Assembly: GCA_051961435.1 (NCBI GenBank)
Contig: JBQCDH010000027.1
Span: 32,535 to 96,534 of the forward strand
Source: Solirubrobacterales bacterium
GTDB lineage: Bacteria; Actinomycetota; Thermoleophilia; Solirubrobacterales; 70-9
Reading direction: 5' to 3'
Length of the DNA stretch: 64,000 nucleotides
Positions 9,667-43,237 of this stretch are shown here, one piece after another (the stretch's first letter is position 1; every line of letters starts with the position of its first letter). Both the position numbers and the translations under genes were made by a program. Under the pieces are notes generated by a model. The model did no database searches. It saw only the letters and a list, made by a program, of their open reading frames with translations, and had not been told where the DNA came from.

Positions 9667-10440
9667 ATGAGCGACACGGTTACCCTCGCCCTGCAAGGGG
9701 AGGTGTCGCTGGCCGAGTTCTCTGCTGCGGTCACTCGATTCAACGCTTTGATAGCTGCGCTCACCGCCGATTCCCACGTCGAGGACGTGGAGTGGCAGAT
9801 CGACGCCCTGGAGTACAGCAGCGCCATCACTACCGCTCGCGGCGTCCCTTTGAACGGCGGCGATCCTCAGCGAATTGAGCAGGTGGTGGCCGCTTACCAT
9901 GAAGTCGGGGAGGCCCTTGAACGAGGTACCACGATTCCGTTCTCCGAACCCGTCCAAAAGGAAGCTCGGGGGATCGCGGAACTTCTCAAGAAGTCTTCTC
10001 ACATCGAAGCAGTTCGATTTGAGACCGCTGAGGCCGACGCAACGATCCGCGAACTGGTTGACCAGGACGACACTCCACAGAAGGCTGTTAAACCCAAAGG
10101 CTCTTATGGCTCAGTGACGGGCCGAGTCCAGACGCTTACCAGTCGCAACGCACTCAGGTTCACTCTCTATGACCACATCTATGACCGCGCCGTCTCTTGC
10201 TACCTCGTCAAGGGGCAAGAGTCGATGATGCGCCAGATGTGGGATCGAGTTGCAACGGTCGAGGGCTGGGTAAGCCGCGACCCCGTGACTGGCCGCCCCC
10301 AGAACGTGCGGAAGATCTCGGCGGTGACTCCATTGACGGAGGTTGGACCCGCCGACTACCGCAAGGCTCGCGGCGCAATCCCACATGGGAAACAGGATCA
10401 ACTGCCAGAGGCACAAATAAGGCGATTGCGCGATGCCTGA
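9667..10440 (+). CDS. hypothetical protein (no family recognised), upstream partner of a PIN-domain protein
   Basis: 257-aa ORF with protein-like composition. Its stop overlaps the PIN gene start (ATGCCTGA, 8-nt overlap). Confidence 0.6.
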   Translation: MSDTVTLALQGEVSLAEFSAAVTRFNALIAALTADSHVEDVEWQIDALEYSSAITTARGVPLNGGDPQRIEQVVAAYHEVGEALERGTTIPFSEPVQKEARGIAELLKKSSHIEAVRFETAEADATIRELVDQDDTPQKAVKPKGSYGSVTGRVQTLTSRNALRFTLYDHIYDRAVSCYLVKGQESMMRQMWDRVATVEGWVSRDPVTGRPQNVRKISAVTPLTEVGPADYRKARGAIPHGKQDQLPEAQIRRLRDA

Positions 10441-10912
10441 CGCCCCCCGCCGCATCTATTGGGACGCGAACGTGCCCCTCTCATTTCTCAATGGCTTGCC
10501 CGACCGGGTTCCGACTATCGAAGAGTTGTTCAAGCAGGCTCGGGCGGAAGAGATCGAGTTGCTGACCTCTTCCGTCAGCCGGGTCGAGGTCGCGTTCGCC
10601 AAGAGCGAGAAGGAGAGCGGATCGCTGGACGAGGGTGCCGAGGAAGCAATCGAGGCGTTCTGGGCTCCCGGCTCTCCGCTTAAAACGGTCGAGTTCTACG
10701 ACCTGATCGCGGACAACGCGAAGGCGTTAATCCGGCAGGGGATTGAGCAGGGCTGGGGTGGCTTGAAGCCGATGGACGCAATCCACATCGCGACGGCTCA
10801 ACGTATGGGCGCCTCCGAGATGCACTCCTACGACGACCGCGTAAAGAAGTGGTCGGGCAAGCTCGGGTTTCCGATTACTGATCCCCAGACCGCTCAGGGC
10901 GTCCTCGGTTAG
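10433..10912 (+). CDS. PIN-domain protein (putative ribonuclease/toxin)
   Basis: 159 aa. Acidic quartet pattern IYWDANV, SRVEV, PMDAIHIATA, SYDDR. Confidence 0.75.
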   Translation: MPDAPRRIYWDANVPLSFLNGLPDRVPTIEELFKQARAEEIELLTSSVSRVEVAFAKSEKESGSLDEGAEEAIEAFWAPGSPLKTVEFYDLIADNAKALIRQGIEQGWGGLKPMDAIHIATAQRMGASEMHSYDDRVKKWSGKLGFPITDPQTAQGVLG

Positions 10913-10936
10913 GAGCCGGAGAAGCTGGCCAGCGCC

Positions 10937-11251
10937 TTAGATCGGCCCCTCGGTCGGTGGCTGCTCTCGGGGGCTGATCTCCTCGGAGGCGGCGTTGTCG
11001 AGGTCGTACGCCTCGACGGTCAAGCCCTCCTCGGTCATCCACCGGATGATTTCCTCCAAGCGCCTGCCCGCGTCGTGCAGAGAGCCTGGGATGCTGAATT
11101 TGATCCGTGCTTCGTGCTTCTCGGCCATCGGAACCAGCGTAGCGACTCCGGTTTTTCGGCCTCGACCGAGGCTGCTTCTGTCATAGCCCCGGCCGAGGCT
11201 TTGAGAACTATGCGCTGCCGAGTCCTCCCCAGTCAGTGCGCCTGGCGACAA
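10937..11251 (-). CDS. hypothetical protein (possibly only the 63-aa version starting at ATG 11128)
   Basis: ORF only, no motif and no clear RBS. Confidence 0.3.
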   Translation of the reverse strand: MSPGALTGEDSAAHSSQSLGRGYDRSSLGRGRKTGVATLVPMAEKHEARIKFSIPGSLHDAGRRLEEIIRWMTEEGLTVEAYDLDNAASEEISPREQPPTEGPI

Positions 11252-11594
11252 GAACGAATGACGCCAAGGCCAGCATCAAACCGAGGGCTGCGATCAGCAT
11301 CTCTACTTCGTCTGCATTCATGCATCGACGGTAGCGCCACTCGCGCCGATCTTCTACTTCCTGGCCGGAAGCCACGTTGTTATTCGTGTTGATGACCACG
11401 CTTTCCGTGCTGCTGCTGACCACAATGCCGCTGGATCTGTCCCCGGCCTGTTGCTGGCAATGGGGTAGAACCAGCCCGAACAGGAGGTATCCGTGAAATC
11501 ACCGACCCGGCAAACCCGCATGGCTATTGAGCCTGCGAGTTTCGCCAATCCCTCCTAGCTAGGCCTCAACAGCCTGAACCGAACATCCAGACGC

Positions 11595-12008
11595 TCAATT
11601 AGGTTCGGGTCGCTTGAACAGCCTGAGCGACTCCCAAACCTCCTTGTCTGAGAGTCCGCTGGAGCGGCGGGCGATCAACTCGGGAGCAAAATGGATCATT
11701 TGTTGCCGCTGCTGCCAACTAGTGAGTAGTTCATAAGTTCGCGCTGCAGCTCGCGCAGCCGACTCAAGAGTCGTTGCGGCGAGCACGTCGATCATGAGGG
11801 AAATCCAGCCATGCTCCGAGCAAGCCAGGCCAGCGCAGTCCGCGTCGTCAAGCGGCGCACCTAGCTTCAATCGCAGCAACGCTCGCGCTGCCGGGTCCGC
11901 GTCCTCGGGGTGGAGTAGATCCTCGTTGCCGTCAGATACCCACTCGCCGCGCTCGTCCCTCGCGCCCTTAGGGTGGTCCTGCATGGGAAGCCTGCCTTCC
12001 TGTGCCAC
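11595..12008 (-). CDS. hypothetical protein
   Basis: 137-aa ORF with plausible composition, no recognisable domain, GC lower than the core. Confidence 0.4.
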   Translation of the reverse strand: MAQEGRLPMQDHPKGARDERGEWVSDGNEDLLHPEDADPAARALLRLKLGAPLDDADCAGLACSEHGWISLMIDVLAATTLESAARAAARTYELLTSWQQRQQMIHFAPELIARRSSGLSDKEVWESLRLFKRPEPN

Positions 12009-12117
12009 GCCCCCGGCTGCACCAACAGCGCGGGGGCACTTTTGCGATTTCGGCGGCGACCGTAGGTGGACCGGAGGCCCGTTTCAAGGGCCGGAATCGA
12101 CCTCTCTCGGACCTCAC

Positions 12118-12141
12118 CTTGCCCCAGGGCTTGCCCCAGGG
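12118..12141 (+). repeat. perfect tandem cTTGCCCCAGGG x2 (arm-site-like)
   Basis: Two identical 12-mers, with the same 8-mer and the same 12-nt phase as 6701-6720. Lies about 75 nt from the tRNA-fMet 3' end. Confidence 0.6.
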
Positions 12142-12171
12142 ACGATTTTGAACCCCTTTGTCTACACTCCT

Positions 12172-12199
12172 AGAAAGACAAAACCCCGCATTTGCGGGG
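12172..12199 (-). terminator. intrinsic terminator downstream of tRNA-fMet
   Basis: On the minus strand: CCCCGCA-AA-TGCGGGG hairpin followed by TTTTGTCTTTCT, starting 12 nt after the tRNA 3' end. Confidence 0.6.
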
Positions 12200-12210
12200 C
12201 TTTCGTGAAA

Positions 12211-12284
<74 letters not shown>

Positions 12285-23876: not shown

Positions 23877-26108
23877 TCAGCTCTGCGGCGTGTTGGGGAT
23901 TTCGCGCAGCGGCGCGTTGGCGGGGCCGCAGCCACCCGGGTCGAGCCGCCCCTGCACCTTCCAGACGATCACCGGGCCGCTCATGAGGATCGGCCGCACA
24001 GCCTGGCCGGTTATCCAGCGGGCCTCGGGTGAAGGGATCGGATCGCTCGGATGAATGAAGTTGAGGAAGGGGGCGGTGACGAGGTAGTCGAGGTCGGCTT
24101 CGTTCACCGCCCGGCGGAAGGCGGCGCAGGTGGGAATCGCGTTGAAGGCTCCATGCGGACCCTTTTCGCCCAGGTACTGGACGTGGTTGGTGAGGTCGGT
24201 GCCGTAGAAGCCGTAGCCGGCGAAGCCGGCGGTGGTGCCGACGAGGCCGATGCGGGCATGGCTGAGGTTGCGAGCCCAGGCGTAGGCGCTGTCGAGGTTC
24301 ATGCCGGGGATCTGTTCATCGCCCTTGCCTTCGTTGGCATAGCGGTGCTCGAGGTAATGGCGCTGGAGCGGATAGCCGATCGCGACCAGGAAGAGGGCCG
24401 CGGCCGCGGTGGCCGCGATCGCGATGCCGGCGCCGGCGCGGCGTGAGCGCAGGAGCAGCCAGATGGCGGCGATCGCGGCCACCAGGACGACCAGCGCCAG
24501 GGCGAAGACGCGGCCCTTTTCGTGAAGCGCCTGGTCGGGGCGGTTGGTGACGAGGAAGACCACGACCAGCGCCCCCAGCAGCCACCACTGCCGCCGGGGC
24601 GCGTCGAGCGCGCGCGGCAGCGGCACCAGGACGATGCCGGCGAGCAGGGCCGGGATCACGTAGCGGATGTTGATCCCGAAGCCGACCGGTTCGCCCTCCG
24701 CGCCGGCGGCGCTGAGCGGGGTGAAGAGGTAGGCGACGAGACCGAAGAGGGCGGCGGCGCCGACCCAGCGCACGATCCGGTCGCGGCCTCGGAAGATCGC
24801 CAGGAGGGCCGCGAGAGCGGCGGCGAGGAGGATCAGCGGCCAGAGCACCCCGAACGCCTCGTGCAGAGCGGGCGCGAAGAAGTGGCGCCAGACGCCGGTG
24901 TCGGTGGCGTAGTGGGCGATGTTGAAGTCCGGCCTGCCTTCCTGCAGCCGTTCGGGATGGGGCAGCGAGATCGGCCCCAGCGATTCGACCTCCGGGAGCG
25001 GGTTGCCGGCGACGACGAGGTTGCGCAGGTACCAGAACGCCCCGCCCGCCAGCGCCGGCAGCAGCCACCATCCCGCCGCCGCCCAGCGTCGCCCCAGCGG
25101 CGCCAGCACCACCACCGCCACCGTCAGCGCCGCCGCCATCGCCAGCCCCGTAACCCGCGTCCCCGCCGCCAGCCCGGCCGCCAGCCCGGCCGCAGCAATC
25201 GCCCAGCGCTCCATACGAAACTGTGAACCGATTTCTCCCCGCATACCGGGGACACCGCGACCAGCGTGATTCCAGGCCTCGACGAGGATCGCGATCGAAG
25301 CCAGCAGCAGCGCCGCGGCGGCCAGGTCGTTCTTGGCGGCGCCGGGGTCGCGAACGACGAGGGTGTGACACTCGAGCAGGATCGCCGCGGCGACCGCCGT
25401 CAGTGCCCCCCGCCCGTAGGGCCGTCCCACGCAGTAGGCGGCGAGGAAAGCGACCGCGAGCCAGCCGAAGTTGAGGAACAGCGACAGCGTGTCCCGCCCC
25501 GTCAGCAGGATCCCCACGGCATGAAGAAGTTCCGAATTCTGCGGATAGAACCAGTTCGTGAACACGGTCTCGACGTGGTGCATCCCGACCACGGAGTGGG
25601 TCTGCACCATGTCGACGGCGAACGGCAGGTGGTACCAGAGGCTGTCGAAGTTGAAGATCCCCCGGTCCCATGCATGCTGCGTGGTGACCCCCCAGCTGAA
25701 CAAGGTGATCGCGATCACCAGCGCCATAACGGCTAGGGACCATGCGCTTTCGCCAGCGGGTCCTGTCGCGGGTGGGGGCACCTGCGCTGGATGCTCGGTA
25801 CCCCCACCCGCGCCACCCGCTGGAGAAGCGTTTGCGTCCGAGGGTCGACGCGTAAACAGCAGCGTTCCGGCCGCAAAGAGCAGCGAGGCCACGATCAGGG
25901 TTCCGGCATAGAACAGTCCAACGGTGCCGAGGATCTCGGAGAGCCAAATGACCAGTGCCACAGCGGCAATTGCCTCCACCAGATGCGCCGGAGCGCCCGT
26001 CCAGGTGGGCAGCAACCGCTGGCGCAGCTTGTAGGCGCTGAAAGCCACCGGAACGACGACCAGGACCAGCTGCAGGGCCCCCACGAGATAGGAGCCGAGG
26101 CTAACCAT
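23877..26108 (-). CDS. large polytopic membrane protein (possibly a GT-C-type glycosyltransferase)
   Basis: 743 aa with many hydrophobic helices followed by a C-terminal soluble domain. The family call is a guess from architecture. Confidence 0.65.
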   Translation of the reverse strand: MVSLGSYLVGALQLVLVVVPVAFSAYKLRQRLLPTWTGAPAHLVEAIAAVALVIWLSEILGTVGLFYAGTLIVASLLFAAGTLLFTRRPSDANASPAGGAGGGTEHPAQVPPPATGPAGESAWSLAVMALVIAITLFSWGVTTQHAWDRGIFNFDSLWYHLPFAVDMVQTHSVVGMHHVETVFTNWFYPQNSELLHAVGILLTGRDTLSLFLNFGWLAVAFLAAYCVGRPYGRGALTAVAAAILLECHTLVVRDPGAAKNDLAAAALLLASIAILVEAWNHAGRGVPGMRGEIGSQFRMERWAIAAAGLAAGLAAGTRVTGLAMAAALTVAVVVLAPLGRRWAAAGWWLLPALAGGAFWYLRNLVVAGNPLPEVESLGPISLPHPERLQEGRPDFNIAHYATDTGVWRHFFAPALHEAFGVLWPLILLAAALAALLAIFRGRDRIVRWVGAAALFGLVAYLFTPLSAAGAEGEPVGFGINIRYVIPALLAGIVLVPLPRALDAPRRQWWLLGALVVVFLVTNRPDQALHEKGRVFALALVVLVAAIAAIWLLLRSRRAGAGIAIAATAAAALFLVAIGYPLQRHYLEHRYANEGKGDEQIPGMNLDSAYAWARNLSHARIGLVGTTAGFAGYGFYGTDLTNHVQYLGEKGPHGAFNAIPTCAAFRRAVNEADLDYLVTAPFLNFIHPSDPIPSPEARWITGQAVRPILMSGPVIVWKVQGRLDPGGCGPANAPLREIPNTPQS
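25756..25835 (+). repeat. hairpin repeat copy A (inside the membrane-protein CDS)
   Basis: gcgggtcctgt + stem cgcgggtgggggcacc / ggtacccccacccgcg (15/16 paired, one C-A) + loop TGCGCTGGATGCTC + ccacccgc tail. Confidence 0.8.
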
Positions 26109-32200: not shown

Positions 32201-32678
32201 CCGCGTCAAGCTCGATCTCCTCCCCTCGCTCGATCGCGAAGCCGGCCGGGCGCAGCGAAGCGTCGGGAACCGCCTCCGCCAGCGCGGTCGCCGAGGCGAC
32301 GACGACCGCGTCGGCTTCGGCGCCGAGGGCGTCGAGGGCGTCGATGCGCAGCCCGACCAGGTGCGGGGGCGGGCTGACGTGGGATGCGTAGCCGGTCCCC
32401 CGCGAGGGATAGAGGCGGACCCGGCGCGGCGCCAGGTAGGAGCGCAGGTCAGCGGCGAAGTCGCGGGCCGAGCGGTCGTCGGGGGCGACCAGCAGCGCCG
32501 GGCGGCCGGCGAGACCGCGGTCGTCCTCGAGCAGCGCCGCCAGCAGCAGTGGCCGCAGCATCGTCGAGGCGCGCACAGTCGTCCCCTCCCCGCCCGCAGC
32601 CGCCTCGCGCGCACGCGCCGCCAGCGCGTGGACGCGCTCGTTCTCGGCGGCGATGTCGATGAGGGGTCTGAGGCTCAT
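29295..32678 (-). CDS. mfd: transcription-repair coupling factor
   Basis: 1127 aa. CarD-like HEDHGVARF, helicase motifs GDVGFGKTEV and DEEQRFGV, TRG region. Confidence 0.95.
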   Translation of the reverse strand: MSLRPLIDIAAENERVHALAARAREAAAGGEGTTVRASTMLRPLLLAALLEDDRGLAGRPALLVAPDDRSARDFAADLRSYLAPRRVRLYPSRGTGYASHVSPPPHLVGLRIDALDALGAEADAVVVASATALAEAVPDASLRPAGFAIERGEEIELDAVADDLVGAGYERVEQVLERGQFAVRGGILDVYPATEERAVRIELFGDEVESMRWFSTFTQRSLGEAERVELAPAAEMDAEHRELAELAGMAAEEEGAEAPNLAEVLPLEHFRAPLELVPETAAVVLVGSDEIEPALRDHWEDVTTAMHAEDAQHLYVDIAAPLAERAALALTGAGEEDEDAFRAARAESPARSVKEAEGELEKLVRSGYRTVVAFDSQGEAERARYGLDRLDARLLEGGRLSPDPGLSFAEARLREGFVSPELKLAVYPFRRLVHRRRRTEEPAPGAGRGRLAFGDLRVGDHVVHEDHGVARFAGFETREVGGVTRDYLYLEYKGEDRVYVPTDQLAKLSRYVGAGGEPTLSALGGKRWQNMKARARKAAGALAGELLNLYAERRARQGHAFPPDGEWQIAMETAFPYRETADQLEAIEAVKGDMEAVRPMDRLVCGDVGFGKTEVALRAAVKAASDGKQVMVLVPTTILAQQHFGTFRERLADLPFRVEGVSRLRPPAEVKAVLKDFEAGKVDILIGTHRLLSRDVRAKDLGLVVVDEEQRFGVKQKELLRQLKLKVDVLALSATPIPRTLQMSLAGLRDISVIETPPEGRRPVRTYVGPYDEDLVCKAINREIERRGQAFVLHNRIDSLPETTERLRALVPGARFLEAHGQMEENALEETMLSFLRGEADVLVTTTIIESGLDIPTANTLIVERADQLGLSQAYQIRGRVGRSRERAFAYLLYPSAEALTEEAAARLSTLADHTELGSGFRIAMRDLDIRGAGNLLGDEQSGHVAAVGFELYCQMIDEAVAEAAGAAGEGLEEAPEPVRLDVPVDAYLPAAYVPFEAAKIDVHRRIVAAREPGQLRAIRDELEDRFGPLPPQAENLLRLQRARIELGLAGARSVEFRGGRLSVTGVELDSEAAGVLAGQVEGAVYEWREQTAAIRVAGDPEERLAAVLAMAEGLREARRAAEPAAA

Positions 32679-43028: not shown

Positions 43029-43110
43029 GCGGGTCCTGTCGGGGGGAGGGGACGCCTGCGCTGGATGCTCGGCATCCCCTCCCCCCGCCACCCGCCCGAG
43101 GAGCGGTTTC
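43029..43110 (+). repeat. hairpin repeat copy B
   Basis: gcgggtcctgt + stem cggggggaggggacgcc / ggcatcccctccccccg (16/17, one C-A) + loop TGCGCTGGATGCTC + ccacccgc tail. Confidence 0.8.
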
Positions 43111-43145: not shown

Positions 43146-43237
43146 GGCGACCAACGCTCCCCCGGCGGGTGGCCCGAGTGTGGGGGGTACCGAGCATCCA
43201 GCGCAGGTGCCCCCCATCAGCTCGGGCCAGGACCCGC
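43146..43237 (-). repeat. hairpin repeat copy C (inverted relative to copy B)
   Basis: Reverse complement reads gcgggtcctGGCCCGAGctgatGGGGGGCACC-TGCGCTGGATGCTC-GGTACCCCCCacaCTCGGGCCacccgc. Confidence 0.8.

Follow-up and report, generated by a model that had tools for sequence, protein, structure and literature searches.

A modular palindromic repeat read in frame in a membrane protein gene: one site, changing occupants across a genus of Solirubrobacterales

Within a 64,000-nucleotide stretch of the genome of a Solirubrobacterales bacterium (the window; GenBank assembly GCA_051961435.1, contig JBQCDH010000027.1, forward-strand positions 32,535 to 96,534), a hairpin-forming DNA repeat that we call copy A sits inside a gene for a 743-residue polytopic membrane protein with a glycosyltransferase family C (GT-C) fold. 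The modular family of palindromic repeats to which copy A belongs proliferates within a single genus of uncultured Solirubrobacterales from soil. Copy A is placed in frame in a disordered loop of the protein, where the element is predicted to be read as a Gly/Pro/Ala-rich linker of 30-40 residues. Across the genus the site has persisted while its occupant has changed: it has long been occupied, with repeated replacement, and does not reflect one recent insertion. We propose, with a probability of roughly 0.8, that the family is a selfish one, akin to MITEs (miniature transposable elements with inverted repeats), repetitive extragenic palindromes (REPs) and Rickettsia palindromic elements (RPEs), and that its members conserve their own structure and are tolerated in a linker of variable length, where one is repeatedly replaced by another.

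A previous interpretation, made from the letters of the DNA alone (the sequence-only reading), had placed a hairpin element at window positions 25756-25835. The element is indeed there, but it is some 25 nucleotides (nt) longer and forms a rod that spans 25737-25839 (Table 1). Its inner palindrome with the loop (25767-25812) is unique as a whole. The 22-nt apical motif has three matches in the window, at 25779 (+), 43053 (+) and 43188 (-), and none in 100 shuffles, and a 32-nt perfect inverted match pairs 25774-25805 with 43183-43214 (pair I20). On the mRNA strand the inner stem has the 16 base pairs (bp) claimed for it, one of them G-U, and it is embedded in the longer rod, which folds at -75.5 kcal/mol against a shuffle mean of -49.4 (z -6.75; 0 of 200 shuffles as stable). 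Folded as DNA, the + strand of the same interval reaches -40 kcal/mol (z -5.3). The canonical orientation of copy A is on the + strand, so the host mRNA carries its reverse complement. The frame is not broken, just as had been stated: the open reading frame (ORF) at 23877-26108 (-) consists of 743 open codons, and its predicted translation passes through the element as ...ASPAGGAGGGTEHPAQVPPPATGPAGES..., the same peptide that the sequence-only reading gave. That reading had put the inserted segment at about 27 residues, a figure that we replace by residues ~87-126. Rfam searches of both loci returned no family, only sub-threshold matches to microRNA-like hairpins, and a scan of the copy A site for terminators and promoters saw neither a terminator-like site (T tract) nor a promoter-like one.

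Copy A is one of many. In the host genome (G000, a 2.8-Mb draft of 69.6% G+C), the loop motif of its type, T1, is matched exactly 10 times, with one mismatch 5 times and with two mismatches 4 times, about 16 of these matches being true copies. These lie both between genes and within other genes, and they have the same loop and covarying arms, which bears out the earlier suggestion that the peptide is a by-product of the DNA repeat. In an alignment of 17 T1 copies the loop and the base are invariant, and the arms vary from copy to copy yet stay complementary. In fact, RNAalifold finds 27 pairs in this alignment, 11 of them with compensatory double changes, and 97.8% of its cells are paired in the correct register, against at most 52% in slid registers.

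The T1 repeats are part of a larger superfamily, of which a scan with the flanking motifs alone finds about 40-50 copies in G000, roughly one third of the catalogued ones being intragenic. All types share the base GCGGGTCCTGTC ... GCCACCCGC and an outer stem, and differ in the hairpin tops that they carry; at least six types stand on this common base, labelled T1 to T6 (with T1b and T2L besides). The unit of about 100 nt is built up from the outer stem, a base stem (GCGGGT/ACCCGC), an internal loop that is small and asymmetric, an inner stem that varies, and an apical part specific to the type. Of 36 genomes of the genus, 35 have exact base motifs, with 1-38 copies each (a reversed-pattern control gives about 0); the motifs are thinly scattered across other families of Solirubrobacterales. 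The commonest base-to-base lengths of T2, T2L, T3, T4 and T5 are 65, 65, 68, 74 and 86 nt. Because all five are 2 modulo 3, swaps among these types would be frame-neutral, a pattern that is no more than suggestive, the types being few. T1 copies measure 65-73 nt from base to base, and T1b and T6 are variable.

What happens at the site of copy A in other genomes? The host gene was found in all 36 genomes sampled from the genus. Every one of the 30 orthologues that we fetched is open, with no internal stops, and 28 of them, single-contig genomes included, carry a member of the family at this site, always in frame. The occupants are T1, T1b, T2, T2L, T4, T6 or partly deleted remnants, and they come in both orientations. 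The two most divergent orthologues, which stand apart from the other 28 in the tree, have a short unrelated loop and no element. Further away, 122 remote homologues have a median of about 25 residues at the loop position, against 44 in the host protein, and the loop varies in length and composition across the wider protein family. Thus, the expectation that the segment would be absent from orthologues holds for the two deepest ones and for the remote homologues, but the other orthologues of the genus hold another family member, often of a different type or orientation. If the peptide itself were being kept, relatives should conserve it at the level of the protein; since the site shows conservation of nucleotides and structure instead, the by-product interpretation stands.

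On a maximum-likelihood tree of the orthologues (insert masked, unrooted, drawn from its midpoint), well-supported sister pairs are unlike in type or orientation: L023/L024 (99/98), L006/L009 (100/99) and L013/L016 (100/100). The same is true of L002/L003, both of which adjoin the G000 copy (100/96). Type changes at least 14 times on this tree, where label shuffles give a mean of 17.8 and a minimum of 14, and orientation at least 8 times, where shuffles give 7.7. Type and orientation are close to random on the gene tree. The region that varies between alleles covers residues ~79-126, and outside the outer flank of the element the N-terminus tracks the species tree. Residues flanking the third transmembrane helix (TM3) had raised the idea that larger segments of the gene are exchanged; we dropped it because the eight orientation-linked residues beside the base belong to the outer flank of the element and are also found at intergenic copies. 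The outer flanks differ between alleles as well, so it is whole units that are exchanged. Half-deleted remnants persist in intact genes (L008, L013, L026 and L027).

Some loci hold partial copies in series. At L016, three tandem half-copies are translated in frame, and in G000 (C55:12753-12898) tandem 39-nt half-copies, consisting of outer flank and left base, precede a complete element. These tandem half-copies may be footprints of the replacement process.

The GT-C-like gene is not a special case. Listing all spanning frames in G000, followed by a check of translations and Pfam, leaves at least 13 copies, out of about 40 in the catalogue, that lie in frame; they are spread over 11 genes, the host gene among them. 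An in-frame insertion is therefore not the uncommon event that the sequence-only reading took it to be. The linker of DnaX (G000 C28:16971-18842, L035/L057, and loci L058-L079) has two element sites; of 23 genus orthologues, about 20 have the one filled and about 17 the other, and each site hosts at least five types. Here the orientation is constant at each site, always forward at the first and always reverse at the second, and DnaX from other families of the order has no element at either linker site. Elsewhere in the genome, 11 sites that hold T3 in genome G025 were looked up in G000: about 6 carry another type, 1 carries T3 as well, 3 have no element and 1 went unclassified.

To explain these results, we propose that an ancestral short loop was invaded once, probably early in the genus, and that the resident element would then have been replaced many times by other members of the family, in either orientation. 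The most likely routes of replacement would be recombination or copy-choice, in which dispersed copies meet through the common base and outer stem, or re-insertion into the copy already resident. Only outcomes that are free of stops and preserve the frame would have survived selection, and the encoded peptide would have no role of its own. The protein could tolerate such a peptide because this linker varies in length and sequence throughout the wider family.

Copying of these elements appears to be recent in places. In G025, more than 10 identical T3 copies are spread over many contigs, which looks like a recent burst, and the in-gene copy of G007, a single-contig genome, recurs as an identical 69-nt twin at another locus (C1:1695097 vs C1:2563479). 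The identical copies of G025 and the twin of G007 point to recent copying. The in-gene copies of G028 and G023 have relatives of 92-96% identity in their own genomes, and that of G025 has none above 79%.

Could the shared base be more than a meeting point for recombination? A bolder proposal, which we consider fairly unlikely, makes it a dedicated recombination site, through which a structure-specific enzyme or hairpin copy-choice swaps whole modules between dispersed loci. If this were true, each locus, loops of essential proteins included, would be a stable 'slot' with changing content, and the elements would amount to site-conservative mobile DNA of a new sort, a natural way of rewriting short protein linkers in frame. 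The attC sites of integrons offer a model for a second version. An attC site is an imperfect hairpin with conserved paired boxes at its base, an unpaired spacer and a variable centre, and the repeats described here likewise have a paired base stem that is conserved, a spacer that is asymmetric and unpaired, and a variable top whose bulges are conserved; the likeness is a structural analogy only. By this account the base would act like the R and L boxes, and a recombinase would swap the variable tops as cassettes. It would suit the fixed sites with changing types in the GT-C-like gene, in DnaX and at intergenic positions, the constant orientation at both DnaX sites while the type changes, and the existence of tandem half-copies (C55, L016). 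We nonetheless find it quite unlikely. No candidate enzyme was found, and the copies are dispersed over many contigs and inside genes, with no arrays beside an integrase and nothing like cassette arrays (intI was not searched). The apical part, unlike the centre of attC, is conserved within a type. Exchange also takes in the outer flanks, hence whole units and not tops. We had considered a base inherited vertically beneath changing tops, and rejected it: the right-base variant CCACCCCCCGG, common to many in-gene copies, is also present at about 27 other loci and goes with T4 and T2L.

Several observations weigh against our own proposal. The hairpins are almost perfectly paired even in coding sequence, and the differences among four in-gene T1 copies of different genomes are fully compensated; passive junk DNA is therefore insufficient as an explanation, and either selection on structure or the copying of one arm from the other is needed. 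The site is filled throughout the genus, with decay in only 5 of 28 copies, and the hairpin could be useful. The tree is unrooted, and the direction of gain, loss and conversion is not polarised on it. The single clean filled/empty pair (G025 vs G000, L096/C51), in which about 99 nt stand in for 4 nt directly 3' of a TAG stop, has no target-site duplication, and the remaining two pairs are ambiguous in this respect. Moreover, no transposase or recombinase has been linked to the elements: the Y1 transposase of REP systems (RAYT; PF01797), the only family searched, was not found in any of 61 genomes of the genus, with control genomes positive.

The constraint on pairing lends itself to another explanation, namely that the hairpin is kept as a structured nucleic-acid signal, the peptide being its price. 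Such a signal might make ribosomes pause after TM3 and so aid membrane insertion, or it might be an RNase or stability determinant, a part that REP hairpins play behind genes. We hold this to be unlikely, although several observations could be read in its favour. Pairing is upheld by compensatory changes in the in-gene copies too; three metagenomic orthologues, for example, carry T1 at the site, and their stems differ from that of G000 by fully compensated changes, including a G-U displaced by one pair. The rod is very stable, the site stays filled across the genus, and numerous intergenic copies are found about 50 nt or less from a stop codon, a trait shared with REPs (PMC3733652); by crude gene calls, a stop codon is at most 53 nt away on the canonical strand for 13 of 40 copies and on the opposite strand for 6 of 40. 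One strand is also the better folder: as RNA, 37 of 40 G000 copies fold about 5 kcal/mol better on the strand opposite to the canonical one, but this asymmetry is a trait of types and the copies are not independent. In these 40 copies the counts of G-T pairs and C-A mismatches are alike. Against a signal, orientation has flipped about 8 times at the site, so that neither strand-specific sequence can be required. The deepest orthologues and the wider protein family do without the element, half-deleted remnants survive in intact genes, and the site has no T tract or promoter. Taken together, the compensatory changes favour a functional role, and the flips, the element-free relatives and the remnants speak against a strict requirement.

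Could the gene itself mislead us? It is conceivable, if highly improbable, that we are looking at an ordinary linker, hypervariable and rich in Pro and Gly, or else at an assembly or annotation artefact or a pseudogene, and that the likeness of the segment to intergenic repeats is incidental. The linker does vary in length and composition across the wider family, and the database gene call for G000 does begin past the element: the protein on record (P0002) has 616 residues and starts at Met128, just beyond the hairpin. It is thus deprived of the first 127 residues, which comprise three predicted transmembrane helices and the element-coded loop. Incidental likeness is contradicted by nucleotide identity to the intergenic copies, the 32-nt perfect match included, by a hairpin far outside shuffles, and by the presence of the same families at the site in 28 genomes, some of them single contigs. 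As for the gene, about 120 orthologues are called through the element site, at 720-771 residues, and cover 100% of the host protein, whose N-terminal 86 residues are kept in orthologues and in homologues of 34-63% identity. The frame is open in 30 of 30 orthologues, and the N-terminal part shows both conservation and a confident fold: the host gene is a real, conserved one and not a pseudogene. The shortened P0002 is probably a gene-calling error due to the element.

AlphaFold, given an alignment of 141 sequences, models the host protein with a predicted local distance difference test score (pLDDT) of 93 and a predicted template modelling score (pTM) of 0.94. The part upstream of the element is modelled at pLDDT 95-99. 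The only stretch of low confidence covers about residues 90-120 (pLDDT 54-65), with no secondary structure at 94-121, and it sits between helices 68-86 and 122-149. The element had been expected in a loop between hydrophobic helices, and in the model it occupies just such a place, between TM3 and TM4. This loop begins with Arg-Arg, and the loop that follows is acidic and holds D155, Y159 and H160 (hydropathy and charge). Based on the Arg-Arg and charge pattern and on the usual GT-C layout, the element-coded loop would face the cytoplasm. GT-C enzymes have a conserved acidic residue in the first extracytoplasmic loop; D155, Y159 and H160, nearly invariant among 141 homologues, are candidate counterparts of catalytic residues. 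Foldseek matches the model to ArnT (5F15; E 1.2e-5, probability 1.0) and also to AglB/PglB, AftB, EmbC, ALG9/12 and Pmt4. The neighbours of the protein in a protein atlas carry PMT/PMT_2 families, and searches of Pfam and NCBIfam with the host protein gave no curated family match (PMT, PMT_2, GT87 and others). On related contigs the gene comes after those for enolase and a DivIC/FtsB-like protein. A metagenome contig (L043, ~10001-12226) displays the conserved order pth, enoyl-CoA hydratase, mfd, SurA-like peptidyl-prolyl isomerase, enolase, DivIC/FtsB-like and GT-C-like gene.

How does this family compare with known systems? Its closest counterparts in behaviour are the RPEs, which PMC10969869 describes as lying in frame in unrelated housekeeping genes, with peptides that are compatible with fold and function. 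According to the same source, RPEs resemble the repeats described here in being palindromic, about 100-150 bp long, present in dozens per genome and, for a large share, in frame in unrelated genes. A further likeness is that the element peptide falls in an unstructured loop between two helices and is compatible with the fold. The two differ in that RPEs belong to AT-rich Alphaproteobacteria and our family to high-GC Actinomycetota, and in that our family is modular, with one base and several tops, and is translated in both orientations. We liken them by class of function and imply no homology to the ten RPE families, which base composition and phylum would make unlikely. We know of no description of filled orthologous sites at which the type of an RPE has been replaced.

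REPs, too, can be intragenic, above all in genes for replication and repair (PMC3733652), and the repair and replication hosts here are DnaX, RecG and Lhr. REPs lie mostly just 3' of genes and sometimes supply or abut the stop codon (PMC3733652); they come closest to a placement that many of the elements described here may have, and G-T pairs occur in the stems of both. The units described here, however, are three-tiered and of about 100 nt, as opposed to 20-40 nt, and no RAYT was found in the 61 genus genomes. As to the GTAG and CGTC tags that mark REP families, by eye GTAG borders the T2 top on the reverse strand, CGTC borders the T3 and T5 tops, and T1 has neither.

Like MITEs (among them Correia/NEMIS, ERIC and RUP), the elements are short and non-autonomous, have inverted ends and vary in copy number between relatives, and the base and outer stem form their terminal inverted repeats. 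Bursts of identical copies and occasional in-frame fusions with host ORFs are further points in common (PMC10969869). Unlike MITEs, they have no duplication at the one clean filled/empty pair, their arms covary while their loops are frozen, and they have no known parent insertion sequence or transposase, as far as the search for Y1 goes. What distinguishes the family from RPEs and REPs is its lineage and composition, its modular base and tops, its translation in both orientations, the absence of a RAYT and the conserved sites with changing occupants. This turnover at orthologous sites seems to be new. A full-text literature search found no description of such repeats in Solirubrobacterales, which is not proof of absence.

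Selfish palindromes inside genes occur beyond the reduced, intracellular bacteria of which Rickettsia is an example. A soil lineage that is free-living and high in GC has them in abundance, in dnaX, recG, nuoC and a GT-C glycosyltransferase-like gene. What seems new is that filled sites are conserved across a genus while the occupant is swapped, the frame kept and the arms held complementary. This raises the questions of how hairpins are copied or converted without a recognisable transposase, why the stems stay paired, and what share such elements have in the evolution of protein linkers. There is a practical side as well: these hairpins probably mislead gene callers, at the cost of 127 residues in the case of the host gene.

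Table 1. Coordinates of copy A, its host gene and related copies, numbered along the window
Feature	Position	Strand	Description
Host gene	23877..26108	-	743-residue polytopic membrane protein, GT-C glycosyltransferase fold; from ORF, translation, orthologues, AlphaFold and Foldseek
Codons for residues ~87-126	25731..25850	-	Element and outer flanks; disordered loop between helices 68-86 and 122-149
Copy A, whole element	25737..25839	.	Outer stem, base stem (conserved), internal loop, inner stem (variable) and apical loop (conserved)
Left base GCGGGTCCTGTC	25756..25767	+	Common to all superfamily types; genome-wide scans
Invariant T1 apical loop motif CCTGCGCTGGATGCTCGG	25781..25798	+	Read as TEHPAQ on the gene strand
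Right base GCCACCCGC	25812..25820	+	Conserved; genome-wide scans
Copy B, type T1	43029..43095	+	Intergenic, base to base
Copy C, type T1	43165..43237	-	Intergenic, inverted relative to copy B

Besides the GT-C-like gene, the G000 genes with in-frame copies code for a Kgd-like E2/E1 fusion (with the element between lipoyl domains), Lhr (two copies), RecG, DnaX (two copies), an MMPL protein, a Wzy_C-like protein, NuoC, ribosomal protein S1 (in its tail) and two unnamed membrane proteins. The copy in the MMPL gene (G000 C30:36786-36861, L036) is a T2 variant of 76 nt, against the usual 74 nt; the frame shifts within the element, which gives a different peptide past the loop, and the ORF is still open. 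A paralogue of the host gene (37-40% identical; G000 C51:36663-38711) has an element at its 3' end (C51:38749-38824). In six genomes (G000, G002, G004, G014, G019 and G025) this 3'-end element has one orientation and differing types. Finally, the T1 loop motif also turns up, with one mismatch, in a distinct, AT-richer palindrome that is devoid of the family base (G000 C12:43066-43083) and possibly constitutes an element in its own right that shares this apical motif.

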